64,000 bases of DNA from Psammoneis japonica (taxonomy: Eukaryota), in the NCBI GenBank assembly GCA_008632985.1, contig QPGO01000087.1, forward strand, positions 186,001-250,000, given 5' to 3'. Below the pieces are notes generated by a model. The model made no database searches. It had not been told where the DNA came from and was given only the letters and a program-made list of their open reading frames with translations. A program made the translations under genes and the position numbers. Positions 17,301 to 50,355 of this stretch are shown here, one piece after another. Position 1 is the first letter of the stretch. The number at the start of each line of letters is the position of its first letter.

Positions 17301-20300
17301 AGATTGCAGATTCTAGATTTTTCTTTCAGAACAAATGCAGATTTTTGCGGCCCACAAAATGTTGGTGTGGATTCTCTTGTTGGAGCAGGTTGTTTTCTAT
17401 GATGATTGGGATGGCATTCATTGACAACTGTTCAGATGTGGGTGTTGAGACACTCAGAGAAATTTGTGCCTTTTGTGGCATGACCAAAAGATCACAGAAG
17501 AAGCAATCCTCACTTTGGTTTGCAAGCAACAATCTCATGAAAATGAACTTGACAATTGACACAGCCAGATCTCAATCCACAACTGCCGCTGTGAGTTTTG
17601 GCACCCAGGGCTGTGGCCAGAGCACTGCTTTAATTGTTGGAACAGAGAAAATGGACATGAAGGCAACCAGCAGCAACTCCACCAATCCCAGCTGCAATGT
17701 GTGCCACCTTTCTCACTGCTTGTGATGTGGAACAGCATTTTCTTGTGGTGTTGACATTGTTGTTGATGAATGAGCTGCTTGAGATTGCGTTGATGCCCAT
17801 CTCATTCCACAGCAACTCCAGGGTGCCATCTTTGATCTTGCATCAAATTTGACCTCAAAATGTTGGCAAACAGAAACCTTCTTTCTCAATGACAAGAACA
17901 AACTGTTTCCATCTCCAAGAGGTGCTGTCAATGAGCTCTGCACACTGTCCAAAGTCAGCAACATTTTGGCTGTCCAGGAAGATGCCATCATTGACAATGG
18001 TGTGCTGCCCAGCCATGGAGGAGTCTTTGCAACCCTCGCACATTCCAGTGTCTTCTTGTTTGCAAAATTCCTTCTGTCAGGGGCCCACAGCACATTTGCA
18101 ACATGTGCTTCAACTGTGATCTTTGCAAAAAGTGTTGCAACACTGGCACACACAACAAGGACCATGCGTTTGAAAGGCCAGTGTGAGTCATCAGCTCTTC
18201 CACACCTTTCCTGCTCTTGCACAAGGAGCCCCCATTGCACACAAGCATTGCTTGTGCTGCAATGGAGCCAGTGGGAAATGCAAGTGTGCCAGTGATAAAA
18301 GCAAGTGCACAGTGGCTCATGACTCCACCTGCCAAGGTTGCCTGCCTCAACATTGGCACCAAAGAACCTTGCTGCAAGTGTGCTGAGTGCTGGGATTTTT
18401 TTCTTTGCCAGAAGTGCTGTGCAATGCCAAAGAGCATGTGCTTGCAAATGGCTTTCTCAAACTGGCTGGGGTCAACTTGCAACCAGTTTCTGTGGCTCCT
18501 TTGTTGTTCTCCTCCTGAGGAAAAACCAAGTCCTTCACATTCCAACAAGAACACCATTGTTCCTGTGACCACAGCAGTTGTGGAGATCATGACAGACAAG
18601 ACAACAACACCTGGCATCAAAGCTGAAGTTGTGGCGACACTTTTGCTGGGGCAAGAGGTGGCACTCATTAACTTGCCAGAAGCAAAGAGATGAGTGGTTG
18701 ACATCCCAAGGTTGTCCCAGAAGGAGAGTTTGAAGCCAGAGAGAACATCCAAGTCTCCTGCAAACCTTTTGCCAAGGAGACATTGGCCAAGCCAATGAAT
18801 CTCATTGGAAAGGACATGAGTGGTGTCATCTGGCAGTTGCCAGCCCTGATGGCCAAGTTGACCTTGTTGGTGGTGTGCAGGAGGCACAGCTCTCTTGGAT
18901 GATGGGCACTGAAAATTGAGCCCAAGAACCTTTAAGTCATTGAAGACATCTGAGTCTTGAGTGGGTGTGTTGTGTGACATGTCAAGTTGTTCCAATCATT
19001 GTGCCAATGGGCAAGGTGTCAACACAATGTCATGGTGTCCATCAGCTCATTTTGCATGCTTTTGCAGCAGAGTGGCTCTGTGGGTTTCCCACTGTCTTGC
19101 TGAGGCAAGATGCCAAGATGCCACAAAATTAATTTTGGTTGCACTGGCCCACTTCTGCAAGTGGAGCTCTGATGCACAATGTTTGACAGCCCACCAGCCC
19201 ACACCTCATTGACAAGGCACCCAGTTGTGGGTGTGATGAGGACTGAGGCAGCATCAAGTCCACTCACCAGAGATGGACAGCCTCCAGTTTTGCAAACCAC
19301 ACCTTTGGATTTCTCCAGGCAACCACTTCTTGGCAGAGCAGGTGCAAACTGCCCTTTGCTTTGCAGTCTGGTCCAAACCCAGTGGTGCAGAGCTTTCCCT
19401 TTGTCTTGTGAGCATGAGCAGATGAGCCACATGACAGATGCAGACATTTCAAGAGGAGTGTGTGGTGCATGTCACAGCTGTGCTGTGAGATCACAACTTT
19501 CTGATCTCCACAAAGCTGGTGAAAGCCTCCTCAAGGTTGTCATGCTGTGCATTGACAAAAGTCAGTGAAAACCTTTGGGTTCTTCATCACCAGGTCCCTC
19601 CAAGATGGTGTCATCCACCATGACATGTGCTGGAGAGTCCACCTCAAGGGTGTTTGGGCACCTTTGGAGAGAACACATGGCACAAAGCTTCTGCCACCCA
19701 CAAATGTGGGATCATGTGTGAGCAGCCAGGTGCACATCTCTGACAATCATGGTGGCCAAAATGGACACAAGATCCACCCAAGATTTTGTTGATGTGCTGT
19801 GGTGGCAGCATGTCTGAGGACTCAACATGCTCATGAAAAAGCAGTTGCCACTCTGCAACTCCAAAAGCATGAGCTCAATGTGATGTTTCTTTCCTTGCTG
19901 GAGTCCACATTTCTGTCTGGTGCCTCTGACATGCTCAAGAAACTGCCAGTGCAAAAGATTGTTTTGCTTGGCTTTCAGCTTCTTGTCACTGACACTCCAA
20001 AGCAACCATGTGAACCCTTTGATTCTGACTGAGTCTGCTCTCACTGGATGATCATGCTTTCAAACTCTGCCAAAAAATGCTTTCTTCCTTGTTTTTGGCT
20101 TCTTCAGCCTTTCTGTCACAGAGCTCAACAAGTTGTGTCTGTTTGTTCTACAATTTTGTCTGCTTTTCTTTTGGAGAGGTTGACTCAGAGCAGGCAATTT
20201 TTTTTTCTTTGACAGTGCAGATTCACTCTCCTCCTGAAGCTTCATTGTTTGATCATCATGAAGTGTGCTTTGCTGTCCATCCCACCTTGAAGCATTGCTG

Positions 20301-23300
20301 CTGCACTGCTTTTCTGTTTTTCTTTGTTGGGGCAGTCAATGACCTCCAACAACTTTGCCACTTCTGCTTCACATTTTTCTGTGCAGCCACACATCTTTGT
20401 TCTCTTTCCAAGAGTCTGATCCCTTTGTTTTCTTGAAGAATTCCATGTGGCACAAGAGCAAACTCAAGTCAAGATTGAGGTCATCTTTGGGGAAGTGATG
20501 CAACAGATCTGTTGGCAATGAGAAGGCTGAGCTTCAGCTTCCTCCAATTGAGAGAAAGTCATTGCAGAAGCCCCCAATGAACACCAGCAGAGCAAGATGC
20601 AGCACTCTGTGATGAGGTGTGTCTCTTGGAGGCCTGGCTTGCTTTTCCACTGTTCACATCAGCGCCATTTTGCATCTTGCCATCAGGGCCATTTGAAACA
20701 TCATTCTTGAAGATGCCCGTGGGGTCAAGAATTCCAGTCAAGCAATGTGACCCCATCATTCTTTTCTTGAGCAGAAATCTTCAGTTCCTCAACTGAGAGG
20801 ATTGCAAAGAGAAACAGCCACTCTGACAGAATGCTCACAATGTCCAGAATGTCCTCTGGCAACCATTCCTTGAACAACAACATGTCAATGTGATCTGGAG
20901 CTTGAGCAATCCCCAGAGGCAAAGATTTCTGGTTGTGAGAGACATTTGCAATTCTCCCAAAGAGCTGCAGGAATGAGTTGTCATGACATGTCCGTTGGTC
21001 CTCTCCTGTGATCAGCCAGCAGACTGTGACAGTTTGTGAGGATGAGGATCTTTGCACTGGTGTTTGCTTGCTTCATCACACCCTTTGTGTTTGCCATGTT
21101 TGCAACGTGCATCTTGGCCACAATGTTGTCCCAAAACCCTGGCCAGCAGCAGCAGGGCATCTGAGGTGCAGATGTCTTTGATGTTTCAGCATGACCAATC
21201 TTTCAGTGGATCGTGTCATTCCTGCTTAGACACAGGGAGTCATTCCCACTTACACACAGGGATCTCTGTCACAATCAACATGACCTCATCTCATTGTTCC
21301 CCTTCTGCCATCAGCTTTTTGCTGTGATGATGAGCTTTGCAAGGCTTTTGATGCCTTTCTTTTGAAGGGGCTTTTCTGTCATGTTGCAACCAAGCAAGTG
21401 TCTGGCTGCAGTGCACTTGCCACAACCAGTGTTTTGTGGCACTGGAACAGGAGCATCTTTTCCCAAGATGCTTGGTGCACTTCTCACCCCATTTTCCATT
21501 CACAGTGGTGGCACAGCAATGTTGTCTGATTTCTTCTGCTCATGTGGGCAGCATGTGGTGTTCTGTCATGTCATTGTCAATCTCTGCTTCTGGCAATGCA
21601 GTGGGCTTGACAACAAATGTCTTCATGGCTGTCATCATGTTCTGCAGTGCTCACAATGCAGATTTGAGATTTTGGCTCTTTCCTCCCAGGATCAAGAATT
21701 TCATGATGAGTTTGATCACTTTTGCTTTTTACAATGCAAGATGTGTCAAGAAGCTTTGAAGCTTTCCCACAATTTTTTCATCCTTGCTGTGTCCTGTTTT
21801 GGCAACATGGACGCTGCTGTTGTTCAACGACATGACATTTTTCACTTGACTTGGGCACAACTTTTTTCTCATGAAACTTGCTTCTGCACATTGCAATCAC
21901 AGCATGCATGAATCATGATGACTGGCACTGAGCCTGAATTTGATCAGAGTCTCAAGAGGTTCTGGCACTTCCTTCCAATCTTCCAATGCCAAAAATTGAC
22001 CAACTTTGGCTTCCAAACCTGCACCCATCTTTCAAGAGTTGCCAAGTTGCCCCCCTCAAGTTTGTTGGTGTCTTTCTTCAAGCTGGCTTCAATGTGGTTA
22101 ACAGCACCTAAAACCTGCTCACTCTACAGTGCAGCCTGGCTTGATTTGGTGATCCTGGGGCTGGCAGCATCCCCAGGCTGCACATGCTGGCAGATCTCTG
22201 TGCTGTTGTCACCACTGTTGAGGATCAAAAAGGGGGCCCAAGATCCACTTGCCATCTTGTGCCACTGCTGCTGTTGGCTCTGTGGTGGCATTGTCATCCA
22301 CTGAAACTTTGTCAAAGGGCTGCAGTTTAGAAAGCAGCAGGAATGAAAAAGAGTGACTGCACAAATCACTGAGGAAGTGTTTTGGTGATCAGGGCAGCCA
22401 GCAAGTGGCTTGCAAGTGGCATCTGTTGGTGGTGAAAGCACAGGCTCAAGTTGAACAACAGGCCTTCTGTCATCTTCTCCACTCTGCAGCAGCTGACTCC
22501 ACTTTGAACAGAATGCAGTCAACTCCAGCATTGCAGCTGTCAGCAGAGGCAGCCCAAGCTCTCCAGGAGACCCAGTCACCAGGACACTGGCCCACATCCT
22601 GCCTGTTCCCAGGCCATTTTTGGCAGTGAGTGCAGAAGGTGGACTGCCAAATTTGGGTGGGAGCAAAGTGTGGGTAGAGTGCCTGATGAATGCAAGGGGC
22701 CAGATGATTTGCAAGCAGAGAGCATGAGCTGCAAGAGAGCATTCATGAACAAAAACAGCACATGACAGGCTCAGCTTGGGGGCATGCAGGCAGCAGAGCA
22801 TTTTTTTTGAAGCACCAGCAGCCAACAGGGTAAACGACATCAATGTTGACTTGAGTGAATGTGGCCACAGCACTGCCAGCTTAAAGGAAGTGAGCAGAGA
22901 TGTCTTTTGGAAGAGAGCTCCAGCAGTCAGCTGGGACCAAGGATGGCAGCAGCAGCAGCAAGGTGCAAGTGATGTTGGAGGGCACAATGGGTTTGAAGTG
23001 GTGCTGGTGCATGGTGTGAAGCAAGGGGCAAGGTGTGCTGGTGTGCTGCCAGAGATGAAGTGTGCAGTGCACCATGGCCAGGACCAGTTGGAATTGCAGG
23101 TCACCACTGTGGCCGCATGCCAATCACTTTAGCCAGTGTCTTTTGAGTGGTGACCTCCAAGGTGATGCAGGTGGCAGCCCACAGTTTGGCATTGGTGGCA
23201 GTGGAGACAAGTCCAGGCAAGCAGGGCTGGCAAGTGGTTCAACTCAGCACAGTTGGGAGGGGGCTTTGTCCAGCAGTGCATCACATTTGCTGGGGTGGAG

Positions 23301-25750
23301 CAAGGAGAAAAAAACAAAGGTGATCATGTCAGCATTGCACAAGCCATGGATGGTGCACTGGCAAGTGCCACGGCACTGATTCTGCAGATGGCATGAGTCA
23401 AAGTGGGGCAAAAAAAGCAGCAAGCATCAAGTTGGAAAAGCTGAGTGGCATCATCTTCTGTGCTGCTGTTTGCTGGGTCAGGTGAGCAGTTGTTCTTGAG
23501 AATCAGGGCAGCAACAATGCCATCAATGTTTGACAATGGCCCACAGCAGAGAGGTGGTGCTGGCCATGCTGGCAGAGGTGTGGCAGAGCTCTTGCAGTGC
23601 CAAGGCATTGTGTGCTGCCAGGTTGTTGGCATTGTCCTTGGTGGCATGCTTCTCCTGCACATCAAAACAGCTGGCCCTGAAATCCTGGTGCAAAAATCAA
23701 AACAGATGGTGCTGAAATCCTGGTGCAAAAACCTTCCCATGAGTTTGGCTGAGGCCAAAGTTTGTGATGGTCCCATGTGAATTTGATCTCATAAAAAAAT
23801 GTGGCAGAGATGATGGAGTCAGGGAACTTGGTGTGCCTCAACATGGGGACAGCTTGCCCCAAGACTGCCATGTCTGCAGACCTCCTGCATGCCACCCAGA
23901 TTTTGCTGGGTGTTGTTTTGCTCTTGGTCATGTCATCATCAGTCTTTTCCAGGTGCACTGCTTGGGCATTGGCTGCAATCATGTGCTGTGCCCCTGCCAC
24001 CAGCAGCACTGCAGTGAGATCTTGAGTGTCATGCAGGGTGCCAAAGCAGTGTGGTGGCAGGCACAGAAAATCTGGGAGGGGGGGGGGGGCACTCTTGCAG
24101 GGCATCAATTGGAGGCTGGTCACTGTGGAAGATTTTGGCTGTCTCATGGCACAACCAAGTGATTGGGGGCATGCCTTCACTGACAATTGCTCATTGCTCC
24201 CTGGCAGCATGCTGCACCGGTTTCTAGATGTGAGGCCAGCAGAGCCAAAAAGAAGCACAAGGTCGTGCTTGTTGGGTGTGAAAATGGGGTGACTGGCATT
24301 CATCACTTTGGTGTCTTGGTCTGCAGGGTTGAAGCGACTCACCATCTGCTCCTCTCCTCTGGGACTCCTCCCAACAGTTGATCAAGCAGCTTGCTGTGGA
24401 GGGATGCTGCAGCAACCAAAACCTTGCAATTTTTTCTGTGCAATTGTGCATTGGGTGTGGTGTGTTGTCACGTTGTCCATTGCGCACAACCATTCAAGTG
24501 AAAAAAGTTGAGCGGCCCACACAGGCACAGAATTTTTTTCAGCTTTGCATTTGAGGGCAAAATCTGCCTCTGTGATGGTCATTTGCCATCTTTCATTGTG
24601 ACATGTCTCATTTCACTGGGTCCAATGGCCACAACCCTGTTTTGTTTGACAAGTGCCCCACAATGTGATGTCAAGAAAGGATGAGTTGGACAACGATTTG
24701 AGTCAAAAATCTGACTGAGAAGATTCTGCAGATTGCCACAGTGTTGGTGCAATCCCAGCTGCTGCAAATGTGCAACAATCACCTGAAAGCCCTGCAGACT
24801 CCTCTGTTGTCAGCAGTGATGAAGGCTCTCTTCAAGAAGCAATGCACCGAGTAAATTCGTCATCGAGCCGCCTTGACGAACATGCGACAACAAAGAGAAC
24901 TGAGACTGAATGGAGTTTTGTCTTGTCACAAACAAAGCAGGTTCCCATGGTTTCTTGCTGGTTTGAATTCAAATGACATGCCCCACATTGTAAGTTGTTG
25001 ATTGATTGTGTGTCTTGCATTGTGTCTCACAAACACTCAACACTTGTTTCGTCAAACCTTTTTTTTTTTTTCGAAAATTTTCCCACAAACAGCATGTCGT
25101 CCGAGTCGAGTGTGTCAGTGCTCCTGACCCTGTGTCTTAAAGGCTTTTGACAGCAAGGATCAATGAGCCCCTCTTCACTCTGAAGCTCCATGAAAACCTT
25201 CTTGGCCCACTTGTCACTGACTTTTGCTGCTCATCCAAGCTCTGCTCCGGCCCGCCCTCGTCGCGGTCACACAGCTCCTTGCACTTCTCCACCAACTCCA
25301 TCTTCTTCAGCATGTCGCAGGGAATGCCATCAGACGCACACCACCACTTGCATTGTGGGACAGTCCCAAGACAGCGACGGCATGCGAAGAAATGCCGGCC
25401 ACAGCATTGTCCCCTTCAAAACAACACAAAAAACTCGAGTGCTTTGTGCGGACAATGCAAGAGTCTCGCTGACAAATTTGAAACAAGTTTTGAAGTGACA
25501 ACATTGATGTTGACATAAAGCGACAAATGACGAAAGCCTTTGATGGAGCGAAAAGAAGGCCGCATTGTGACAAAAGACGGCGAATGACCGCCGAGGCAGA
25601 ATTCGCCCTTGTTCTCACGAAAAAAAAACAGTGACATCGCGTCGGGAGCTGCGCGAAAAAAGTCGCTCGAACGGTTTCAGGTTGTGCGCGATTGGATTTT
25701 AGATTCCAGATTGTGGAGTAGCTTTTGGAGATGACGCAGCGGCGACCCAT
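14350..25750 (-). mobile_element. Heavily mutated transposon block 1 (TpA/CpG-depleted), tentatively KDZ (Kyakuja-Dileera-Zisupton)-like; boundaries approximate
   Basis: No intact ORF; strong compositional contrast with flanks. Minus-strand remnants in KDZ-like order at ~18.6-17.4 kb: CLVC.D, GGVM, HWP....VCASVAT, PWL, FHE, LNT/TSEQL (frameshifted). Family call is weak. Confidence 0.5.
23661..23730. repeat. 35-bp tandem duplication
   Basis: atcaaaacagctggccctgaaatcctggtgcaaaa followed by atcaaaacagatggtgctgaaatcctggtgcaaaa. Confidence 0.85.
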
Positions 25751-30038: not shown

Positions 30039-32198
30039 ATGGCCACATTTGCGCCCTCATACCAACAAGGTTCGCATGCCGAAGTCTCTGATGCTGAAGC
30101 ACGACTCCGGCTCGCACGACATGGTCGCTGCCCGGATCACCCTGACATTCAGCTGAAGAAACGAAAGGGCATAAAGTGGAAGACAGTCAAGGAGGAGTGC
30201 TATCGCTGTAAAGAAGAATTCAAACTCAAGACACAATGCTGCCCTGTCCACCCTTTTGTCATTATGAGCAAGGCAAAGAAATTCCGTTGCGGCATGATGA
30301 TGCGTCACCTCGTCTGCCCCCTTTGCCTCGAGGGAGAAATCTCGGTAGGCAAAACGTCGAAGAACGAGCTACGAAGGAAGGTGGACCTCCTCACCAGACA
30401 ATATGCTGAGCTTGCCTCTGATGCACGCTTCAAGTGCGACGAAATCGAGAACCTCCAATCCGAGCTCAGGATTCTTGAGGGCAAATTAAACACGGGAGTG
30501 ACGGTAGAAAGTACGGATCTCCTCGATCAGCTCCTCGAAAAGGCATTGCCGATGATCGAGGATCTAGTGGCGGCACACGAACGTACAAAACCACCCGAAC
30601 CGGTCGATCACATGCAAACCATACGAGCCAACATGATGAAGCTTGAAGCCCGCGTCAAGGTGTGCGAAGGTACTTCCCAGCGTGTGGTGGCCGATGCCAT
30701 GCATGAAGTGTTGCAGCAGCTGGAATCACTTCGGAATGATAAAAACATGCTTGCCATTCAGTCAGAGAAGCAGCGACAGGCGTTTCGAAACGAACTAGAT
30801 GAGCTACAGACCGATCTTGGGATCGTCAAACGAACCATGAAAGAACTTCCGGCACAGGTGGAGTGGAATACAGATACCGTCAAGCAGCTCCTCGAATCAT
30901 ATTCAACCTTGGAAAAAGAATTAGAAAGTAAGTTTGCCGAATATGATAGCTTTATTGCATCTCAGAAGACTTTCAATTCGCAGATTCGCAACCAAGTGGC
31001 TGCACTTGAGACGGCGGTGGCGCAGGAAAAGAATATCACCGCAGAACGACTCGAGGAAATGCAACGGCAACTCGATGCCATTGCCAAGTCGACGACTCAT
31101 ACATTCCAACCGAAAAACGTCATGATGGTCAATGACATGTCGGATGAAATGACAAGGCTTAAGCAACGTATTGAAGTACTGGAACTTGAACTCCAACGTC
31201 GGCAGCCGCAGTGTCCTTCTCATGTTCACCCTGTAAAGATGCCGGTGGCACAGGTGGATCCTCTCACGACCGATAATGAAGTTCCTTCCTCCTCGAATGC
31301 ACCGACCTTTACTGCCACCGTCCCGAAATGTACGCTCAAACGGCACAAAAATCCCGTCACTTGTTGCACCGTATTTGCCAATAACACTCGAGCGCTCAAT
31401 GGTAGCTGGTGCAACGCGATCGAGGTCTGGGACTTGGTGGATGAAACGAACATTGCCACGCTTGAAGGACACAAAAATGGTGTCAATTGTTGCACCGTAT
31501 TTGCCAATGACTGTCGTGCAATAAGCGGGAGCGGCGACGGAACGCTCAATATTTGGGACTTGGTACATCACAAATGCATCGCCACTCTCAAAGGCCACTC
31601 AAGTTACGTCACCTGTTGCGCCGTTTTTGCCAATGACAGGCGTGCGGTTAGTGGAAGCTGGGACAAGTTCCTCAAGGTTTGGAATTTGGAGAATGGAATG
31701 TGCCTCACCACTCTCAAGGGACACACTGGTTACGTTACTTGTTGCGCCGCATTGGCAAGCGGCACGCGGGCAATCAGTGGGAGCTACGACAACACCGTAA
31801 AGGTTTGGGACTTGTCGAATGGAGCATGCCTCACTACTCTCAAGGGACACAAGCGGTCGGTAACTTGTTGTACTCTGTTTGCCAATGACACCCGTACCCT
31901 CACTGGTAGTTTGGACGCAACGCTCATGGTTTGGGACTTGTTGAGTGGGATACACCTTACCACTCTTAAGGGACATGCGGGTTCCGTATTGTGCTGTGCT
32001 GTGTTTGCAAGTGACACTCGTGTCATCAGCGGGAGCCGTGATCAGACCCTCAAGGTTTGGGACTTGAAGAAGCAGGTGTGCCTTGTCACTCTCAAGGGAC
32101 ACACTGATGATGTCACTTGTTGCACTGTGTTTGCCAAGGACACTCAAGCAGTCAGTGGGAGCTCAGACAGCACTCTCAAGGTTTGGCAGCTTGCTTAA
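30039..32198 (+). CDS. Intronless protein: two CxxH...CxxC modules, long coiled coil, seven highly similar WD40 repeats
   Basis: GRCPDHPDIQL...CYRC and CPVHP...CPLC; heptad-rich middle; 7 x 42-aa TLKGH..VTCC.VFA.D.RA.SGS.D.TLKVWDL. Confidence 0.92.
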   Translation: MATFAPSYQQGSHAEVSDAEARLRLARHGRCPDHPDIQLKKRKGIKWKTVKEECYRCKEEFKLKTQCCPVHPFVIMSKAKKFRCGMMMRHLVCPLCLEGEISVGKTSKNELRRKVDLLTRQYAELASDARFKCDEIENLQSELRILEGKLNTGVTVESTDLLDQLLEKALPMIEDLVAAHERTKPPEPVDHMQTIRANMMKLEARVKVCEGTSQRVVADAMHEVLQQLESLRNDKNMLAIQSEKQRQAFRNELDELQTDLGIVKRTMKELPAQVEWNTDTVKQLLESYSTLEKELESKFAEYDSFIASQKTFNSQIRNQVAALETAVAQEKNITAERLEEMQRQLDAIAKSTTHTFQPKNVMMVNDMSDEMTRLKQRIEVLELELQRRQPQCPSHVHPVKMPVAQVDPLTTDNEVPSSSNAPTFTATVPKCTLKRHKNPVTCCTVFANNTRALNGSWCNAIEVWDLVDETNIATLEGHKNGVNCCTVFANDCRAISGSGDGTLNIWDLVHHKCIATLKGHSSYVTCCAVFANDRRAVSGSWDKFLKVWNLENGMCLTTLKGHTGYVTCCAALASGTRAISGSYDNTVKVWDLSNGACLTTLKGHKRSVTCCTLFANDTRTLTGSLDATLMVWDLLSGIHLTTLKGHAGSVLCCAVFASDTRVISGSRDQTLKVWDLKKQVCLVTLKGHTDDVTCCTVFAKDTQAVSGSSDSTLKVWQLA
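31330..32195 (+). repeat. Coding tandem array of ~126-bp WD40 units with high nucleotide similarity
   Basis: Recurrent actctcaagggacac, acttgttgc, tttgccaatgac, aaggtttgggacttg at 126-bp spacing. Confidence 0.9.
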
Positions 32199-35100
32199 CA
32201 GTTTAGGATGGTTCACCCAGCTTCACAGTTTAGATTGCAATGCAAAACTTTGATTGAAAAAAGACAAAGGACTGACAATGTCAGTGTGATGTTGGTTAAT
32301 TTGGTCATGACTTTTTGTTTATTTCCACTCAAAAATGCCTGCTGTTGAGTTATCCAAACTGCACCTCACGCACAGCAAGCTTTCACACGGGTGTTTGGCA
32401 CTGTGACCACAGCAAACCATGTGGTGACATGCTGCCCACTCTCTTAGACTCCTCAAGGCAGCACAAGTGGCAGCTGCCACTGAGAGTGTGGCCTTGGTGC
32501 ATGGTGTCTTGTCACCCCTGTTGACATCCACCACTGCAAATTTGGGTTTTGCAGCTGCTGAGCAGGTCTGCTTTGGGATCTTCTCAATCTTTTTTGCTGG
32601 GTGCATTGTTTTGTCTTTTTTTGCCATCTTGTCTTGTTGCTTGCACCTGCAAGAAAGATTTTCTTTCCTCTGCTGTTGCATCTGTTTTTTCTCTGTGACC
32701 CACAATGTCTGGATGTTGCATGCAAGGGAAGGGTGTTGGCATGCTTGTGTAGATGACTCTTGACAGATGAGACATTTTGGGTGGCTGCTGGGCAGATCTC
32801 CTTCCAGGTCTTCTCAGTTTTTGCTGTGCTGGCAGTGCTCTGTGCTTTTGTTGTTAAAGATGGCAGGTTTGCAGCACTGCACACTGCTTTCCTGCCTCTG
32901 GGTTGGCATGCTTGGGTGCATTTCACAGGCCTCGAATGATGTGCTGCTGGTGTGAAAAAAGACATCAAAAGTTGTTGAACAAATGTCCCAATGACTCAAA
33001 GTCATGCAGAAAGCTGTGCTCATGACATGTGGCTTGTGACCAAAAACATTGATGTCACAGCACAGCATTGCAAGACCCCACCCAGAGCTGCAGCATGCCT
33101 TGTGCTGTGAAGGAATGCTGGTGGTAGAAATTTGGGCTGGGTCATGACAAACCACAAAATGGGGGACAATTTTGCAAGGCCTGCTGGGACAAACTTCAGT
33201 TGCAGCAGTGCACTTGTGCCCCCCACTCTCCCTGCAGGTGATGGCAGCAGGTGCCAGAGCTGGAAGTGATGTCATCAGCTTTAAAGAAAGACACCCAGCA
33301 AATTGGAGAACAGCAAAAGAAGTTGCCAGAAGAGCAAGGAATGCACCAAGGCCAGTGTGCTGAGCTCAGATGAGAGGGTTGGTGTTTTGCCTTTCTGCTC
33401 CCCCCCTCCTCACTGCAGTTAAACTTTTTTGGCTGCAGGGAGGGAAAATACATTTTGGTTGTTTTGTGCATCTGAGGGCAGGGTGAGATCAAACCCAACA
33501 TGTGCTGCTGCCCAACATGCTCACCAACTTGTGATGCATCATTCTTGGAGACATTTTAGCCCCCCTTGCCGTGCACCACCCCCTGATTTGCCCCATGAGC
33601 CCTGCACACTGACACATCTTGGGTTTTGTTCTGAGCTGCTGTGTTGCCAGCTTGAGAGCTCAGAGACAATGTGAGGAGTTGCCATGCGGTGCATCACCTC
33701 CCAACACATCAAGAGGAAAAAGCAAAACTGTCAGGTGCTGATTTGGTGGATGTTGAAGCAGTGGACATGAGGAGTCAGAAATGTTGTGATTTTTTACCCC
33801 ACTTGCCATTGACAAAAACAGAGTCTTGTGGTGATTGGAGAATGTGGGGAATGCAGCATTTGTGACTCTGTGGAAGTTTGCAACAAATGACCCCACAATG
33901 GGAAATGGGGTCTCTTTCAAAACAAACTTTGCAATCTGGACACATGCTGCAGTTTGTCCAAATGGCAAACTTCACATCATTGGAGGAGACTTTCAAGCTT
34001 TGGCCTGTGAAAAGCATGCTGTGACAAAACTTGGCACTGTCTGACATTTTAAAGCCATGTTGAGCAAAATGTCATGGAAGAACAAGCAGCTTGTGTGATG
34101 CAGGCATTTTGGCATGGGCGCAGTTGTCGATCACTGAGCCCTCAACTTCACAGCTTCAGCAGGCTTTCTCAAACATGGAGAAGTGCATGTGTGTGTTTGC
34201 TTCTTTGCTGGTGTGGGTGTCACTTCTGCTGGAGTGATGCCTTCTGCCATCCACACATCCATGCTGCCCATGAGGCAGGCTGAAAAGCTGCCAGAGAAGT
34301 GCTTTGTGAGCTGATCTCCAAGTTTCTTGCACAGTGCTGCTCTCCAACAGTTGAGAAGGGATGAAGGTGCTGTTGGAGGAGAGAATCTTCTGCATGCTTC
34401 TGTGCTCACGTGCCTCAGACATGGCTGGACAGGGCATTTTCCAGCTCAATGCCAACAACTTGACACAACAGAGTTCAACAGGTGCAGGGTCACATGATCG
34501 CACGACACAGAGGAGGCATTTTGTCTCAAAGAATCCCCCTGCCCTCAAGAACACATTTCATGTCACTGAGCAAGTGGCTCTGGTTGCAAACCTTCTGATG
34601 CTTGATGCTGCTTTGTTGTCAATCTTCTTCAAACATTCTCCCCTGCAGAGTGTGCTTGGAGTGGGTCACCCTCTGCTTGCCGTGTGGCATGACACCAGTG
34701 CACGGCTTTGGACACATGAATCAACTCTCATAAAATCTGCTTCCTCATTGCATGCAATGATGAGGAAGCACTTGTAACTTGCTTGTCAATTGAGTGACAA
34801 GATAAAATTCAGAACAAGGTCAACAACTTTTTGCTGAAATGCAGAGTTGAAGAACTCCATGCAAAAAGGCTGTGAGTGGCATGCCAAAACAGAAAGGAAC
34901 CGGCAAAATTGTAGAAAACATCAGCCAGTCTGTGGAGGCAGGTGTGCACCAGAGGTGCACAAGCATCATCTGTTGTCAGCCGCACACACATTTGCACACT
35001 CAGCATGCACAAATGACAAAACGATGAGGTGGGTCACATGCACAGATCTTCAATGCAAGATCTGTCACAACGTGCTGCACCCACAAGAAATTTTGTGGAG

Positions 35101-35677
35101 CAAAATTGAAATTTCCACAATTTCCCTCCACAAACGCATTCAGCCCAACACACTTGGCATCCACATTCTGTCACACCCAACAACACTGTCACTCGCATTG
35201 ACGTCAGACTGTCTGCATCTGGGACACCAATGATCCAGGTGTTGCACTGGCCGTCAAGATTTTTTGAAATAAAACCCGACATGTTTTTCATTCAATCCAA
35301 GTTCATGCTGATTTGTCAAGTCTGTGTTTGTGAAACATTCAACAACAAACATCTCCATCCCCCAATTTAACTGTTTGCCCCCCCTTCCGACAAGCCTGAT
35401 GTGTTTGTTTAATTTTGTGTTAATTTCTGGATGGTGTGTCAATCAATTTTCTGCATCAAAGTTGCCACATGCATTCATCAAGGTAGACTCCACTTGCCTT
35501 CTAAATTTTCTCTCCCTGCCCATTCCACCCTTCTGTCCATGATGCCCCCCCCCATTGCACCTTTTTTCTTGTCCTCTGCTTCCACCCTGTGTCACCAAAT
35601 CTCCAAGTGATTGTTGCTGCACATGCCATTCCATTCGATTCTCTTCTTGACACTCCTTTGTCTCTGTGCATTGGCCA

Positions 35678-38600
35678 TGTCATCTGATGGTCTTGTTTGT
35701 CCTTGGTGCAAACGAGCTGGTTTCTTGTCTGAGTGCGGTCTCAGTGGGCATGTTGCAACCAACTGCCTCTGCTCTGCCATTCTGACCAAGTCTTTTGGTT
35801 GTCCTCATTGCGGACAACATGGTTTTGACTCAGAAAACAATGTGCAGTGTCACCCATCTTGGCACTGCGCTGCTGCATCTGTTCTCCCTTCCCCATTGAC
35901 ACAGTTGTGCCACAAAACCCAATCATCTTCCCTGTCCGGTGGGACATCTCTTTCCTCTCATCCTCTGGATTCCGCCTCCGTTTCCTCCCTTGGGTCCAAC
36001 ACCGACAAACCCAAATGCCCCCATTGCCGTGCCCCCTTTTCCAACATTGCCCTTCATCCACAGAAGTGCTTGCCCTGCCATGAAAAGGAGGAAACGTCCC
36101 TTTGCCGGTTTGCCACATCTTCAAATGCTGCAAATTCATTGCCCCCTCCAGACGACGAATCACTTGATGACCATGATGATCCTGCTGTGTTTGGTTTCAC
36201 CAATGATGATGAACCCCAGCCTTCCCTTCCCAAAGTCCTTTGGAATCCAGATCCACCTCCTCCCACACAATCTGACAACTCTTCTCCAGCTGGCCCTCCC
36301 TCTGCCAGAAATGGACTGCACCCACCCTCCGTCAGACGCTCTGGTTGATTGCGTTCTGCCGCCAATGTTGCTGCCGCCAGTGCAGCCACCAAAAATGCCC
36401 GCCAATTTGTTTTGTTTGCAGATGATGGTGTGTCTGCCCTTGGAGAGGACAGTCCTGTGAATGTCCATGAGTTCATTGGAGCTGAACATCTTGATGGCAG
36501 TTGTGGGCCCCCCTCAATCTCACGTCCAACAGAAGAGCCTGTTCCTCCTCCCCCCAGTGTTGAATCCATTTCGGTTTCTTCCTTTGATCAACACAATCCT
36601 CTGGGACCGGCATGTGATGTCGCCCCTGATGAGGACTTTGATGCACCTCCAGTCCACTCACCCAGCATTGCACCCATGGTGCATTTGCCACATCTGTGTC
36701 ATTGGTCAGGTGTTGCAATTGACTTCATTGACAAAGCAATGAGAATTTTGCATGTGAAGAGCATGCAGAAAAAAGATTGGACATGTCAAAGCCCCCCATC
36801 ACAACCGCCGTGGCAATGAAGCAACTCCTTGGGCCATTTCCCAATGTCCCTCTCCCCCGCACTGCTGCTGTGATGCTTGAATGCAACAATCCAATGCAGC
36901 AGCAGAAGGATGGTCCACAATGTCGTCACTCCCCACCTTTCCCAGTTTGCAGTCTCACCAAGACCCTTCAGGATCTTTTCACTGAGCCAGTGTTCCGTGA
37001 TCTTTCCAAGTTGCAGGTTAATCCAAATGATGTTTGGTCACCTCATGAGCCCCCACTGATGGTGATTTGGATTCCAGCACTGGCCAGGCTGATGGTGTTG
37101 AGATGTTGTTTCCAGATTGTCCTGGTGGCTGGTGATTGTCCACTCAAAGTCAAGACATGGGTGATGGAGAGTGGCAACAACATTGCTCCAATGCCAAGGA
37201 AATGGCCTGTGATTTTCACGTTCACCTTGTCAATTGTTCGGACAAGACCAGAGTCAATGCAGTCAATCCTCAAGGGATGGAGCCTGCAAAGCACTCACTC
37301 ACCATGATTCAAGAGGACTCACACCGTGACTGTTGTTGTTGGTGTCCACTTGGTTTCATGCCCAATTTGGACAAGAAAGACAAGTCTGGGCACCTTGTTG
37401 TTGCCAACTGTCACTGCATTCTCAAGGAGGTGCTCTGTGGGCTGCTTCATTGCCAGGCAAATCTGCCCATTGTCCATGCAACAATGGGCAATCAATGCTG
37501 CTGTGTCAGAGCCACAATGCATTGCAACTCCCTGTTGGGGGACATCCCCAATCAAGAACGCAGTTGTGGCAGAGTCATGAGCCAAAGCAAGACCAAGCGG
37601 TTGTCTCACAACTGCCATGTGCCCTCTCACCTTTCTGATGATCCCCTCCATGCTTGCCAATTCCTTGACCAAGCTTTCATTGAGTTGCTCACTGTTGCTG
37701 CATTGGGTCCAGATCCCAAGGATGACAACAGTCATTGGCACCAGCATGTTGAAAATGTTTCCCGTGAGCATCGTGCAATGACCGCCAAAAAAAGGTTGAG
37801 AATGAGCTTGCTTCATCCCTCATTTGCCGAATGACCACATGCTCCAAAATGTCAAGGAAAGTGTCTGGACAGCACGCAGTGGACAATGCTCACTTTCCAC
37901 TCAACATGGGTGACAACCCATGCAGTGCATTTGGAATGACCATTGCTGACACAATGCATGCAATGGAGGTGGGTGTCATCCCTCAAATGATGGAGGCAAC
38001 AGTTGGAGAGATGTCTGCCAAACGGAAAGAGGAATGTGACCAGATTGCATTGAAATTGTTCTGCACAGCCCGGTGTCGTCCAGGTCAGAGACATGACTGT
38101 CCATGCATTTGAGCCAATGAGGGACTTTCCACACTCAGCCAACTTGCGTGTGACGAGAAGATGGGCAAGCTTTTTGCACTTGCCATCATTGGTCACACAC
38201 ATGCTGGCAGAAATCTGCCAGAAAAGAGGTGCGATCCATCCTTTGACAGCAAAAAGAAAGAACTGCTGACAGCTTTAAAGGAAAGAAGCAACAAGAAGAA
38301 CAGTTGACCAAATCGTCAGAGAGTGAACCCAAGGAAGAGGACCCTGATTCCGTTGAGCCATCCAATGAACAAACAGGCAAAACACACACCACCCCTGTTG
38401 ATGAGAATGTGCCTGATGCACTGCCTAAAGAGACATGGTCTGATGTCCCCTGCGATTCATCCAACTTCCATCACTGCAACTGTGTGATGCAACAGATGCA
38501 TCGTCATGGCCTGTTGGAATTTTGGGAACCATTTTCCAATCAGCTAGATGATGATCGTTTTTTGTTGCACCATGAGATTGCATGCTGGGATGAAACAAAA

Positions 38601-39957
38601 TCATTGAGACAGAAACAATGTGCTGTTGAGACTTCAGCTGATCAATTGTTGACACCTGGACTGCATGGTGTGGTTGGCGGATCAGTGGATGATCGTGACA
38701 ACTTTGCAAGACAAAATTGCCAAGCACTGTCATTTGTGCTGAAGCAGAAAACAAACTTCCGGACTCCTTCACGATGCTCGTAGATGACAAAATGACAGCA
38801 GAAAAATCTGTGGATTGTGGAGTTGATGAGTTGTTGGACTTGTTGCATCACATGCTGCTTTTCCATTTGTTTTGCATTTGTGGGAAGGAACTCTGTGGAA
38901 AAACAGGAAAGGTGGATTTCAAGTGCAGCGTCATCCTGCTTGTGTTCAAGACAAAATCATGCCTTTGCCATGCAATGAACACTCACTTGTTCTGGACTGC
39001 CAAGTTCCATTCTTTGCTGCATCTCATTGTCCACTCTTTCCTTTTTGGGCAGACCATAAATTTCTCTGCCATGATTGGAGAGAGTCACCTGAAATTCTGG
39101 GCCAAGATGCCAGCAAAAACTTGCCAGGTTGCATTGGGTGCAGACAATTTCTTGGACCAACTTGTTGTTTGTTTGCATGACATGGCAGTGCTCAAGAAGG
39201 CACACAGCCTTCTCATCCCTCCCACGGTTGGTCAGGTGAACACATTTTCCTCTGAAGAAAAATTGATGCACCCTTTGTTTGTTGTGAACAGAATTGCCCA
39301 AACTTGCTGCCAGTGTTCAGGAAGCAACGAGAACAGGGTTGTCCCGGAAACGGCAGAGTTGGGCTCCACCCCGCCACTGCAGTTTTTGTTGTTGGCAATG
39401 GAGGAATTGTCAGCTGAGCATGATGAAGTTGTGGTTTGCATGGAGTTTGCCCCACCAGACAAAGGGATTTTAATGCGGGCATGCCTCAATTGTGACAACA
39501 ATGGGTTGTTGTGTAATGCACCCAGGGTCTTGTACGAAGAGGGCGCCGGTGAGAAAAAAGGCACCCTTTCATGCTCCGTGGTTTTGTGTCAGCTGATGAT
39601 GGAACAACACCACTTGCCACAGGACAGTCATGCAAGGAACAGACAAAGACATTGCATGACATGTCTTCCAATGGTGTGGTCGAGCACTGGGAACTTGAAA
39701 CATCAACTGTTGGTCATGGCAGAGATTCTCAGATGATCCCAAAATTTTGCTGTGCAAGCAGAGATGTAATCACAACGGGGTTTTTTTCTGTCCTGGTGCC
39801 CAACAACTGCAATGGAGAAACCATTGAAATGGTGGGATGCTTGAACTCATTGTTGTTTGTTGTGGACAGACACAATGACTGGCCGAAACATTTCCTGTCC
39901 AACAAAGTGCTCCAGCTTCACCTGGACAAATGCCAGAAATGGGAAAATGAGAAATGA
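35678..39957 (+). pseudogene. Plavaka-family transposase pseudogene
   Basis: N-terminal Zn finger CPWC..GF.S..GLSGH; SDKT......EP.......W.PLGFMPNL; LLGD......CG; ADTMHAMEVGVI; WTAKFHSLLH....FG..NF....GESHLKFWAKMPAKTCQ. Broken by frameshifts and TGA stops. Confidence 0.8.
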
Positions 39958-40031
39958 CAACGTGCCTTGGGAAAAAGGAAACATTCACAATTGTTTTGTG
40001 AGCAAACAGACATTGTTCGAATGAGTCAGCT

Positions 40032-40562
40032 CTAAAAGTGTGTTGACTCATCTAAAAGCATTGGTTGGTCGAGGTGGTTCTGTGTCCCAATGTCATCAAA
40101 AAGCATCTGCCCAGTGAAATTGTTGAAGAAAATCTTTGCGTTGTTCTGATGGTGCAAACGGCACACTGTGCAATCTTCAGAGAGGAAAACCTGATTGATC
40201 AGGGCAGGATGATGACCGGGAGAGTCAGGCCAGATGGCAGCACACCAGTCAGAGCCCAAATCATGACAAGGATGGTGGAACTCAATGCTGCAGGCATCAC
40301 AGGAAGGAAGAAGCAAACAACAGGCAATCGCAAAACCAGCACAACCACCGCCAATGTCAATGAAATTAAAAGGGCTTCGAGCATGAGCAGCAAAGAGAGC
40401 AGGGTGACAAATGACCTTGGCAGACAAGGCAAAGCTTGCCGCACCACCATGTGATTCCACACCGCCACCAGCAAAACGACCCATTTGATGATTGGTCGGC
40501 GGCGTGTCACTGCAATGCAGGGAACGCGCGTTCCTACAATGGGAACGATTCACAACAACCAC
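40032..40562 (-). pseudogene. DOT1-like class I SAM-dependent methyltransferase relic
   Basis: ES(H<Y)G, FIDIGGG(C<Y)AGF motif I, SIEF post-I, IFFNNF matching DOT1 IFVNNF, in DOT1-like order. Confidence 0.6.
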
Positions 40563-40769
40563 ATCTCAGTGACAACATGATGCTTCAGTGCCGTTGGAGG
40601 ACCAAAAGAGAATGTGTGAAATTGTGGAGGGGTGCGTTCCCTTGTGCACATGCACACGCATCATTGAGAAGTGGATTGGATCAGTTTGGGCAACAGAGAG
40701 AGCAGTTGGAGAGAGATGGCACAGCTCAGGGAAGTTGAGGGAATGATTGATTGAGATGTGATTGAACAA

Positions 40770-42360
40770 AAAAGAGGCAATGAGAGATGTGGATTTGCAC
40801 AAAAGAACAGGGGGTTTGACACAATTTTTTAAACCAAATGAAGCTGATGTTGTGTCAGGAAACAGGCGCAATGCATGCATTGAGACAAGCACACAAGATG
40901 TGTTTTTTGACACTGATTTAAATGACATGGCAATCTTCATTGAGGCATTGAATTGGCTTGCAATGGAGCACAATTCAAAACAGTGGAAGGTTGATAGAAA
41001 TTCAAACATGGGGTTGGAAATGAGCACTCAAAAATGATGCAAACACCTGTTTGAATCAAGAGAGGACACGCAAGCAATGACAAAACAGAGAAAATCACAT
41101 GCAAAGTGCACTCATTTTGCAACTTGCCTGTTCACAAACCAACAGGGCAAGGACAACAGTTCAACACAAGAGGCAGGAGCCATTGAGAAGGACAAAGAGA
41201 CAGTTGTCACAGGAGCAACAGAGGGAGGAAGTGAAACTTCAAGTGGCAAGTTGGGTTGAAAAGGGCATGACAAAGAGTTGCTGATGAACTGACAACCTGT
41301 GATTTGCCTGTGTGGTGTCACGCAAAGTTGCCATGAGTCCTGCAGTGGCAGCCTTGTTCAATGCACAAAGAAACAAACATGGGGAATTAAACAGATTCCA
41401 GTTCACAGGTGGGGATTTGAGTTCGGCGGTGACTCCCATGGAGGGATGTCTTGTGTTGGATCGTGCACCAGCAGTGGGCAAGAAATTGACAGGATCAATG
41501 CTGACAAAGGCAAAAAATGAAAAAGTGTTTGGCTGCATTGCAAGTTCACAATCTTTGACCAAGAACTTGCCACAGGAGGAGATCACATGAAAACAGTTCT
41601 GCAGGAGTCAAGGAGCATGGTGTCTTCACTGGAGGTGTTCTGGGAAGAATGCAAAGAGGTGTTCAGAACCAAACTCAACTGCAAGAGGAACAATGTGCAG
41701 GACAACATCAGGAGGAGAGTGACAGGCAAGCAGCTGTGTGCGTGCCTTTGATTGTGTTGGAGGCGACTGTCTGACAGGGTGAGTGTCACTTCCTTTGATT
41801 TTGTCTGTGCAGTTGCTGCTTTAGAGGGATCGCTGGTGGAGTGCAAGGATTTGACAAAGGGAAGAGCTGACAAGGACACATGCACTTGGTTCTTGGAAAC
41901 TGTGGTGCCGACGGTGGTGGGACAAGCGCAGTTTGGCAGAAGCACAACTGACATGCTCCAAGAGTGGCTCTCCATTTCATCGGAGGTGTTTGCTCTGCCA
42001 GTGTGCTTGAACTGCCACAACAAGGTGATGGACACGGCAGAGAAGTTGGAAAAGGAAGACAATGTTGCAAGGAGAAGGAAGCTGACAGTGCAAGATGCTG
42101 CTCCTACAAAGCACACAGTGCAGGCAGCGGGGGAATTGGCAAAGAGGAACCAAGGATGGAGCAAGGATGGGATCAAGAAGTGCAATGATCTGTGTCAGTG
42201 GGTGGTGAAAGACAGAGAGAACAACCAAGGATTTGGTGCATGGTTTGAGGAGAAAAGGCGAGAGAAGACAAACTTGTCCAGGGAGGAAAACAAGAAAACA
42301 CAAAAGAGAGGAAAAGAGAAAGGAGAGAGAGGAAGGAGGATGGGCAGCGCCAATGGGTGA
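40770..42360 (+). pseudogene. Transposon accessory ORF remnant (KYT...GWS.xG...YN.L-type domain)
   Basis: WFLETVVPTVVG..F, ISSEVFAL..CLN, TK(H<Y)T...NQGWSKDGIKK(C<Y)NDL..WVVKDR; resembles second ORFs I associate with this transposon type. Confidence 0.5.
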
Positions 42361-44054
42361 GGACCTGCCATTGCAGGTGGTGGCTGCCAGCAATGGAGTG
42401 GAAGCAATTGCTGCCATGGCAACCAACCAAACTGGTGTGTAAACACAAATTGCAGCAAACAACAAAATCCAAAAAAACAGATGAAAAACATTCTGCAAAG
42501 CAGTTTAAAAACAAGAACATGTGGCAGTTGGAAATTTGGATTTGAAAACAACATGGCAAAGAGATAAAATGTGGGATGACTTGGCAGACAAGGAGGGTGG
42601 ATTACAAGCAGCAACAAATGTGTTTAAAGAACAAGAAACCACAAATGTCAAATGGGGCGCAGATCGCCATTGTGTGCAAGAATGACCACACTTAAAAGTG
42701 GGAAGCGATTTGGGCTTTAGAAGCTCACAAACTTGTGCAGTTCTCATGTTGTGTTTAAGGAAAGACTTGGCTCATGAGTCAACAATGATCTGGGATTGCA
42801 GTCAACAAATGCCCAGATTGTGGCAGACGGTCAGACCCAGATTGTTGGCATCCCAGATGTGTGCGACATGCCAAGGTCACAGTTTCTGGCACACAATCAA
42901 TGCAAATGCAATTGGAGTGATTGCAAATTGTTTTGTAACAAGATTGGTCAGTGATGCATTGCCACCAATGCCGCGCATCCATTGTTGGGTTGTTCTCGAG
43001 TTCCAGAAGGGAAAAAGCCGGCTGCTGTTGCTTTGAGAGCTTCATTCATTCACCTGCTTGGACAGGGATTCAAGGGAAAAGGCAAAATGGTCATTGCAAG
43101 ACACCATTTTTACCTCAAGTTGATGGAGAGGAATGGAATCAAGAAATCCACATGACTTGCCACCGAGGATGGAGCGCAGATCAAGTTGGATCCGTTCTTG
43201 CCTGGTGCCGGAGGTGCACTTCGAAATGTCGCTGCTCCCATGGATTTGGATGCTGCCTGCAGCATGGGCATTGTGCATGAATCCAAGCATGTGTTGCTGG
43301 AGGAAAACATGGATGGAACCAACAAGCATGGACATGTCCAAGCACCGCTTGCCTCCAGAGGTGATGTGCAGGCCATCATCAACTCATTTTCCTCAGAACG
43401 AGCAGCTCGTGCCATCATCAGAAAATCTGTTGAAGGCAACAATGTTGAAGAAGCAATGGAGGAGGAGGAGGTTTCATCAGCCACTGCCGGTTGGACTGGC
43501 CCATTGGCACCTTCTGTTGTGCAACTCACACACAAACTGAGTGCCTTGTGCACAGAAACAATCGTCAGCAGCAGCGAGCCCACGGACAATGACAGTGATG
43601 AGGGGAGCTCATGTGCCATCCAGATGTTGTGGCTGTTGTGAAACTATGCTGCAAGCACTGTGACAAGATTGACTTGGTGCCACTTGGAAGAAACAAACAG
43701 AACATTCAAGCACACTTGCGTCCGTGTTCGTCTTATTGTCGCAATGAGCACACAACAAACAAATTATTGCACAATGTCGTGCTGAGTGTGCGAATGCGTG
43801 TGCGGACGACAACAGACGATTTATGCATCTCTGGTGCGTGCGTGCGTGCGTGCACGGTGCGTGCGCAGCAACCAGCAGCCATCATCCATCAGCCATCAGC
43901 GATCTACCGGTATCATTCGCAAGGAGGGAGATCGCAACGAGAAACTGTTTCGCAAGTAGTGCTTACAGCCAGTCTCTTCTTTACCGCTACTCTGTGCATT
44001 CGACAAAGGAAAGCTCTCTGGCGTCTTTGTATCCTGAAACGAGATTTTGGCATC

Positions 44055-50217: not shown

Positions 50218-50355
50218 CATGACCACCCGCAAACCCGACTTTCTTTCTTATCGCCCGGTCCATTCAACAATTTGAATAGACGCCCACATGACCACCCGCA
50301 AACCCGACTTTCTTTCTTATCGCCCGGTCCATTCAACAATTTGAATAGACGCCCA
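50218..50355. repeat. Perfect 69-bp tandem duplication
   Basis: catgaccacccgcaaa...gaatagacgccca at 50218-50286 and 50287-50355. Confidence 0.95.

Follow-up and report, generated by a model that had tools for sequence, protein, structure and literature searches.

CG and TA depletion extends from a domain with a Plavaka-type transposon into the last repeats of a WD40 gene in the diatom Psammoneis japonica

Introduction

The closest described counterpart of the pattern reported here comes from the rhizarian alga Bigelowiella natans. According to the available text of a preprint (Mettrop et al., bioRxiv 10.64898/2026.01.13.699255), the two integrated viral regions acquired 231 new single-nucleotide mutations in mutation-accumulation lines of this organism; 230 of these changed A to G or T to C, every one of them on TpA, and an ADAT2-like adenine deaminase is proposed as the responsible enzyme. 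According to the same text, the B. natans genome also holds clusters of TpA-poor, TpG/CpA-rich windows that are enriched in transposase and reverse-transcriptase domains. Here we describe a locus of the diatom Psammoneis japonica, a stramenopile, in which the loss of TA is accompanied by the loss of CG, and where both extend into a host gene. The window, i.e., the whole stretch of DNA that was analysed, comprises 64,000 nucleotides of contig QPGO01000087.1 (positions 186,001 to 250,000; assembly GCA_008632985.1), and all coordinates below are counted from its first letter. The gene in question is an intact WD40-repeat gene (30039..32198, + strand), the final 158 coding bases of which fall in a CG- and TA-depleted domain that also contains a Plavaka-type DNA transposon. 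To our knowledge, TpA-directed DNA hypermutation has so far been described in a single 2026 preprint on one alga.

Other mutational systems share some features with this locus. Repeat-induced point mutation (RIP) of fungi acts on duplicated sequence, requires both a RID/DNMT4-type enzyme and a premeiotic stage, and produces only C:G to T:A changes, mostly from CpA to TpA, with a rise in TpA and a fall in G+C. In Neurospora and Leptosphaeria, RIP leaks into flanking single-copy genes. RNA editing by ADAR, on the other hand, converts A to G with a preference for 5' U and 3' G neighbours. RIP and its leakage into flanking genes are treated in the available text of PMC3105345 and PMC2621366. In diatoms, as far as the available text of PMC9998398 goes, DNMT4 occurs in some species and transposons carry 5-methylcytosine (5mC) deposited via DNMT5a.

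A CG- and TA-free tail in an intact WD40 gene

The WD40 gene is a single open reading frame (ORF) of 719 amino acids (aa), in which a coiled-coil-like N-terminal region is followed by a 7-blade propeller. The Pfam WD40 family (PF00400) matches the ORF in six stretches (E 3.8e-60), with a score of 198 bits where the cut-off is 27. Residues 546-718 fit a beta-propeller model; with a Pfam score above the cut-off, the product of ORF 30039-32198 is a WD40 beta-propeller protein. The propeller is encoded by seven gap-free, in-register units of 126 nt (31329..32198, + strand), with pairwise identities of 57-72%. An earlier sequence-only reading of this DNA had quoted strings from the first and the last of these units, and both are found, at ~31361 and 32117, respectively.

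The mutated tail of the ORF (32038..32198, + strand) consists of the end of unit 6 and the whole of unit 7. It contains no CG, and its sole TA is that of the stop codon, in agreement with what the earlier reading had stated: the last CG lies at 32037, the last TA at 31987, and the next TA, at 32196, belongs to the stop. From unit 1 to unit 7, the number of CGs is 10, 8, 5, 9, 5, 5, and 0, and the number of TAs is 4, 4, 2, 4, 6, 2, and 1, the last one being the stop. The tail includes the Arg-to-Gln change that had been pointed out from the sequence, in which a conserved codon, CGN in six of the six other units, is CAA in unit 7. A second difference brought forward at the time, CGTA in unit 1 against TGTG in unit 7, is present, but unit 6 shows it as well and unit 5 in part, at positions upstream of the step in composition.

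The CG/TA-free state of the gene tail is confirmed to exceed chance. The reference for this comparison is the 40.6 kb of window sequence outside the depleted blocks. The gap free of both dinucleotides measures 159 bp at the gene end, against a maximum of 82 bp among the 3,867 gaps of the reference. The CG-free stretch is 332 bp long (normal maximum, 137 bp) and the TA-free stretch 209 bp (normal maximum, 205 bp), which makes TA taken alone borderline. When the amino acids of the last 52 codons were held fixed and codons were drawn from local usage in 100,000 trials, 6.4 CG and 6.0 TA were expected; the probability of having no CG was 2.8e-4 and that of having no TA 4.9e-4, and none of the trials lacked both. 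Beyond the stop, the 3' flank of the gene (32199..32351, + strand) has no CG and no TA in the context VTAB, referred to in the following as sensitive TA; the five TAs that it does contain are all in TTA or TAA context.

The WD40 gene appears to be expressed. This is based on sequencing run X2, which is recorded as "DNA?"; no run listed for this stretch is recorded as RNA. Run X2 covers gene regions only and has two joints with canonical GT..AG ends, and from these splice-like joints we infer that it represents RNA. One of its contigs spans 29914-32223 with one difference and ends within the 3' flank, so that the mutated tail is part of the apparent transcript. X2 cover is zero over 32468-42427; the block that holds the transposon has none, and yet the 158 affected coding bases carry it.

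A protein search with the product of the gene returned 38 hits. The best two, P0001 (55% identity) and P0003 (52%), align to the N-terminal half only, and their precomputed Pfam family is PF08238, not WD40; the remaining hits are generic WD40 proteins with identities of at most 38%. No orthologue of the WD40 part was found in this search or in a metagenome scan (74 loci, best identity 42%).

The arrangement of the units may vary in the sample. A contig of run X1 with a depth of 35, about half the single-copy depth of 63, joins 31823 to 32091 via 15 other letters; it lacks 252 nt, the length of two WD40 units, and may represent an allele or a five-unit paralogue.

Direction of the changes

The direction of change that had been proposed, from CG and TA to TG and CA, is supported by three lines of evidence: mass balance, sister copies, and an inverted-repeat pair. 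In the cores of the depleted blocks, ~88 CG and TA have been lost and ~84 TG and CA gained per kb, a balance that a conversion of CG and TA into TG/CA would produce. The sister copies come from contigs of the same sample, aligned on 24500-44400, from which the 40 best-supported of ~998 differences were taken; these collapse to 35 events. In 16 events the window has TG/CA where other copies carry CG (8) or TA (8), four events are in the reverse direction, four are swaps between TG and CA, and 11 are of other kinds. In the TG-CA swaps, a single site has become TG in some copies and CA, by a change on the opposite strand, in others. Transitions make up 739 of the 947 differing places in run X1. 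As for the inverted-repeat pair, the two arms of the transposon (34946-35011 and 43775-43837) differ mainly at five CG and one TA of the outer arm.

The WD40 units had also been put forward as an internal control for the ancestral state, and they serve this purpose for CG only. Pooled over the columns with a CG in another unit, unit 7 shows TG/CA in 24 of 41 comparisons and CG in none, and the other units retain CG in 8-15 of 32-36. The TA columns are not conserved between units: each unit shares only 1-3 of them in 16-19 pooled comparisons, and with columns so rarely shared the units have no power to give the direction of the TA change. Unit 7 has TG/CA in 8 of 21 TA comparisons, against 6-8 of 16-19 in the other units, which is no difference. 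Unit 7 is not more diverged overall, nor is its transition:transversion ratio raised.

Both strands are affected alike, the TG:CA counts being 1218:1174, 332:265, and 949:939 in the three core segments. A runs test on these segments detected no strand clustering of TG versus CA (z = +0.4 to +1.5).

Context of TA loss and its separation from CG loss

The loss of TA depends on the flanking bases. Among the residual TAs of the blocks, the pooled fraction with a 5' T is 0.55, against 0.21 in normal sequence, and a 3' A is also far more frequent. TTAA survives at 0.73, the one-sided contexts TTAB and VTAA (ATAA, CTAA, GTAA) at 0.07-0.22, and VTAB at 0-0.12; ATAT is absent from the blocks, where 54 would be expected. 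A model in which the two strands are hit independently fits all ten tetranucleotide classes, with per-strand doses, by the 3' neighbour of the A, of 2.44 for T, 1.81 for C, 1.12 for G, and 0.21 for A; the model assumes that block composition was originally the same as in the normal parts. TA loss follows the order TAT > TAC > TAG >> TAA, and TTAA is spared. It is because of this rule that six TAs remain at 32196-32351, one in the stop codon and five in the flank, all six being of the resistant TTA/TAA type.

The context dependence of CG loss is only mild, with survival ranging from 0.09 to 0.29. Within T..B contexts, more TG than CA has been gained (8.7 and 4.9 per kb, respectively), a comparison confounded by CG input, and the resulting asymmetry between TTGB and TCAB products is only suggestive as a pointer to the flank that sets the TA rule.

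CG loss and TA loss are probably two processes, since their edges differ and since one stretch, 24841-25718, keeps its CGs without any sensitive TA. TA loss appears to be the faster or wider-reaching of the two: the Plavaka-type copy, which looks younger, has lost nearly all TA and only ~70% of its CG.

The depleted blocks and the Plavaka-type transposon

A dinucleotide profile in steps of 500 bp reveals two depleted blocks, at ~14.5-25.5 kb and 32.0-43.6 kb. Each 500 bp contain 0-12 CG and 0-8 TA over 14501-25000 and 32001-43500; in both blocks TG and CA are at 1.2-2.5 times expectation, and G+C is normal (0.45-0.52). The densities given in the following are relative to the normal parts of the window.

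The domain that bears the gene tail is 11.6 kb long, from 32038 to ~43700. It holds a copy of a multi-copy DNA transposon that lies between inverted-repeat arms (34946..43837, + strand), in which sensitive TA is reduced to 0.03 and CG to 0.28 times the normal density (over 34946-43600). A broken Plavaka-type (CACTA-like) transposase remnant (36756..39966, + strand) is recognised from the colinear alignment of long homologues. For ORF 38699-39733, which lies within it, 75 homologues reach E<=1e-3 (best, 1.8e-47), and the Plavaka family (PF18759) is found in 3 of the 14 homologues scanned; the window's own ORFs here match no Pfam family at the cut-off. The inverted repeat measures 60-66 nt. Its left arm (34946..35011, + strand) is mutated, with TG/CA at the sites where the right arm has five CG and one TA, and the right arm (43775..43837, - strand), which lies outside the CG-depleted zone, has its CGs intact. 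Over 35124-43091, the depth of run X1 is 820-3655, against a single-copy depth of 63, and a contig joining 35214 to 42866 is an internally deleted copy of the transposon. Because of its homologues, its inverted repeat, its multi-copy depth, and the internally deleted copy, the sequence at 34946-43837 can probably be assigned to a Plavaka-type DNA transposon.

The earlier reading had the mutation of this transposon spreading into an intact gene. The domain does cover the 3' end of the gene, but the DNA next to the gene contains no recognisable transposon, the Plavaka-type element starting 2.9 kb from the step at 32038. The intervening segment (32352..34945, no strand assigned) is mostly single-copy and has CG at 0.09 and sensitive TA at 0.06 times normal density. 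It lies on a run X1 contig (26329-35245) with a depth of 63 and no differences, and X1 depth is raised only in the bins 32468-33131 and 34460-35123. The ten ORFs of at least 100 aa that extend over part of this segment match no Pfam family at the curated cut-off, with two weak sub-threshold matches only, and a Pfam scan of the 28 ORFs between 32199 and 35000 that measure 45-99 aa was negative. No similarity to other parts of the window was seen when 32199-34945 was compared by tblastx. With more of its CG lost than in the transposon, the segment looks like an older silenced segment rather than a fringe of the Plavaka-type copy.

The first block (14560..24840, no strand assigned) has CG at 0.08 and sensitive TA at 0.04 times normal density. 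It is followed by a margin (24841..25718, no strand assigned) in which TA has been lost and CG kept, with none of ~21 expected sensitive TAs and CG at 0.90 times normal density. This margin is multi-copy, and its sister copies carry TA where the window shows TG/CA. A diverged contig of run X2, with 56 differences, maps within it at 25096-25592.

Shape of the edges

The sequence-only reading predicted a positional gradient of change towards units 6 and 7, and this is absent from the alignment of the units, which reveals a sharp step within unit 6. Units 1-6 are normal as far as column 78 of unit 6, and nothing is left beyond it. Maximum likelihood places the change-point of CG at 32038 (support interval 32038-32070) and that of sensitive TA at 31988 (31952-32112), so that the pattern at the gene is a step at 31988-32038; from 31988 onwards, sensitive TAs are missing without interruption into block 2. 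At the four edges of the two blocks, CG changes at 14546, 24848, 32038, and 43719, and sensitive TA at 14330, 25719, 31988, and 43905. The TA-free zone extends slightly beyond the CG-free zone at all four.

Comparison with known systems

TpA-directed mutation, from TpA to TpG or CpA, is what is found at this locus. As in the giant-virus and virophage DNA of B. natans described in the available preprint text, the substrate is TpA, the products are TpG and CpA, both strands are affected, and the target is silent or foreign DNA. The two cases differ in lineage, a stramenopile diatom as opposed to a rhizarian, and in depth, with sensitive TA at 0.03-0.06 times normal density here and a rho of 0.45 there. 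They also differ in that TA loss is coupled to CpG loss in the diatom, the term 'CpG' being absent from the preprint text that was available. A term search of the available main text found no flanking-base rule, edge behaviour, or host-gene spill-over (bioRxiv 10.64898/2026.01.13.699255).

CG loss has the form of CpG decay, with CG turning into TG/CA equally on both strands. Like decay driven by 5mC, it affects silent transposon DNA and overlaps into adjacent sequence. Unlike it, the pattern at this locus is very deep (CG at 0.08-0.09 times normal density in two of the three segments) and has a stepped edge, and 5mC-driven decay would account for the CG half only.

The likeness to RIP leakage drawn in the earlier reading holds as an analogy and no further, TpA being the product of RIP and the substrate here. 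In both cases, transposons are disabled through dinucleotide-directed transitions by a mutational defence that also harms or diversifies genes nearby. A RIP-type process limited to C:G to T:A changes was considered and rejected: TpA in sensitive contexts falls to 0.03-0.06 times normal density, TG and CA together rise by ~84 per kb, and G+C is unchanged. Unlike in RIP, A:T to G:C changes are about as common as the opposite kind. Regarding dependence on repeats, 35124-43091 is multi-copy, and 26329-35245, which includes the gene tail, is on a contig of single-copy depth.

Hyper-editing by ADAR shares with this locus the A to G change next to a 5' U/T. ADAR-type RNA editing was nevertheless rejected, given a 3' preference order of T >= C > G >> A and a target made up of a DNA transposon, a gene tail, and DNA without X2 cover; it is this target that argues for an action at the DNA level.

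A literature search, with most subscription journals outside its scope, found no report of TpA or combined CpG and TpA hypermutation in diatoms, nor any report of combined CG and TA loss.

Proposed mechanism and alternative explanations

The reading that we consider probable is that two dinucleotide-directed processes, acting on a silent chromatin-type domain whose edge falls inside unit 6, rewrote the tail of the WD40 gene. The change from C to T at CpG would most likely be due to deamination of 5mC in methylated, silenced chromatin, and the change from A to G at TpA, the signature reported for the viral DNA of B. natans, to enzymatic adenine deamination of DNA. The 5' T of the TA motif fits the invariant U33-A34 context of tRNA adenosine deaminases. 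Both processes would end at TpG/CpA, which neither of them attacks; since both substrates turn into the same products, G+C would stay unchanged. Their target would be the chromatin-type domain and not the transposon sequence itself. The gene tail would have been hit because the edge of such a domain ignores the gene boundary, and with that edge inside unit 6, synonymous and some non-synonymous sites would have been rewritten, including the Arg-to-Gln change. We further infer that the edge was set by the spreading of the domain rather than by a past duplication.

Several observations weigh against this reading. The step at the gene is narrower than 50 bp, and simple spreading would give a decaying gradient. 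The segment that adjoins the gene, 32352-34945 (2.6 kb), is mostly single-copy and has no transposon signature. Domain and element do not coincide, as the right end of the transposon keeps its CGs: over 43601-43904, which includes the arm, CG is at 1.04 times normal density, with one sensitive TA where ~7 are expected. The 3' flank of the gene contains four one-sided TAs, and ~0.7 would be expected from their survival in 32352-34945 (0.18); this excess needs either selection for 3'-end signals or a flank that was AT-rich from the beginning. Finally, all expected densities take the original composition of the blocks to be that of the normal parts.

Among the alternatives, one concerns only the chemistry of TA. 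The T of TpA could be modified, e.g., hydroxylated by a TET/JBP-type enzyme to 5-hydroxymethyluracil (5hmU), and subsequently be misread as C, with no deamination of adenine. TpA is self-complementary, T to C and A to G being indistinguishable from the sequence, and V-T-A is an equally valid reading of the context rule. Furthermore, 5hmU is enriched at TpA in dinoflagellates, and the KDZ/Plavaka-type transposons of fungi are accompanied by TET/JBP genes. We nevertheless regard this explanation as unlikely: nothing in the present analysis supports it, the higher gain of TG over CA in T..B contexts, though confounded by CG input, fits A to G at T-A-B, and the sole experimental system with a TpA signature has been attributed, in the available preprint text, to an ADAT2-like adenine deaminase (bioRxiv 10.64898/2026.01.13.699255).

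A strict RIP-type mutation triggered by homology, in which the tract from 32038 onwards would once have been duplicated and the edge would mark the end of the duplication, accounts well for the sharpness of the step. The bin 32468-33131 has about three times the single-copy depth, indicating that part of the segment has relatives, and the contig with a depth of 35 joins a unit-7-like piece to a unit-4-like piece. Against this stand the contig over 26329-35245, of single-copy depth and with no differences, and the absence of a second copy within the window; the TA-only margins of 300-880 bp at the other edges also fit a dose-dependent spreading better. Taken together, these points leave such a duplication with a rather poor chance of being the cause.

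The tail might also have been copied by gene conversion or recombination from a mutated paralogue, pseudogene, or allele, without any spread in place. This would again produce a sharp edge, and the contig of about half depth has an alternative arrangement of WD units, 252 nt shorter. Nevertheless, the CG-free state is unbroken from the ORF via the flank into the block, so that the donor would need the same flank, and no such donor copy was seen within the window, which makes this origin very improbable. That the tail results from chance, from amino-acid composition, or from selection against CpG/UpA in the 3' end of the mRNA, a selection proposed for the cytoplasmic RNA of eukaryotes in the available text of PMC3829696, is hardly credible, since even though its TA-free stretch of 209 bp is barely above the normal maximum of 205 bp, 0 of 100,000 codon resamplings gave a tail free of CG and TA, gaps at other gene ends, in the normal parts, do not exceed 82 bp, and the depleted state persists through 11 kb without X2 cover.

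Beyond the domain-based reading of the gene tail, a more far-reaching proposal is possible, although on balance doubtful: diatoms might possess a DNA-editing defence that deaminates the two self-complementary pyrimidine-purine steps, at the cytosine of CpG and at the adenine of TpA (motif T-A-B, with TAT > TAC > TAG >> TAA). Its targets would be chromatin domains, not repeats in themselves; it would take silent DNA to a CG/TA-free end state with G+C unaltered, and would spill over into genes nearby, fixing substitutions such as Arg to Gln there.

Other features of the window

The DNA of the window is eukaryotic and compact and carries long ORFs. Besides those described above, there are ORFs for a myosin head, ISN1, PTPS, a triose-phosphate transporter, a bZIP factor, a subtilase, a CAP protein, and Rsm22. 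The triose-phosphate transporter, with 668 hits, is 79-83% identical to proteins of raphid pennates (Craspedostauros, Bacillariaceae, Nitzschia, Epithemia) and 89% identical to another match; on these grounds the organism was taken to be a pennate diatom. In a minus-strand kinase ORF (26662-29247), a contig of run X2 omits 202 nt at 28905-29106, within the 5' part of the ORF; the omitted piece has the ends GTAAGT...CAG on the + strand, and the skip could correspond to an antisense or overlapping spliced transcript, or to a mis-set start of the kinase ORF.

Both blocks contain many long, overlapping ORFs on both strands (14560-25240 and 32352-43600), of up to 345 codons. They are rich in Cys and His and have no Tyr, and gene callers could mistake them for genes; with TA nearly absent, TGA is almost the sole remaining stop codon. 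No Pfam family was found at the curated cut-off for 12 long block ORFs or for 88 ORFs of at least 100 aa. A homologue search with ORF 17991-18995(-) of block 1 found none, in an Atlas search 22127-23128(-) had no usable hit and 17991-18995(-) reached a best score of 0.76, and two scans of viral contigs with block 1 ORFs returned no matches. Neither blastn nor tblastx found matches between the two blocks.

Two tandem arrays complete the picture of the window. Three diverged 181-bp units (25929-26334) adjoin block 1 and have raised depth in both X1 and X2, and an exact 69-bp duplication is located at 50218-50355. Another run X2 contig starts at ~43927, just outside the right end of the transposon (43601-43904).

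Significance

This diatom locus adds a second lineage for TpA-directed hypermutation, gone near completion. In the Plavaka-type copy, a larger share of TA than of CG has been lost, and TA loss reaches further at all four edges; the TA motif can be compared with candidate deaminases. For genome annotation, blocks of this kind hide transposons from homology searches and yield long spurious ORFs, because only TGA stops remain in them. If the more far-reaching proposal of a DNA-editing defence were true, it would be the first adenine-deamination defence in stramenopiles, and the second independent lineage after Bigelowiella. The spill-over into the tail of the WD40 gene is a useful natural experiment; for the host it represents a concrete cost or a source of variation, by which genome defence can change host proteins.

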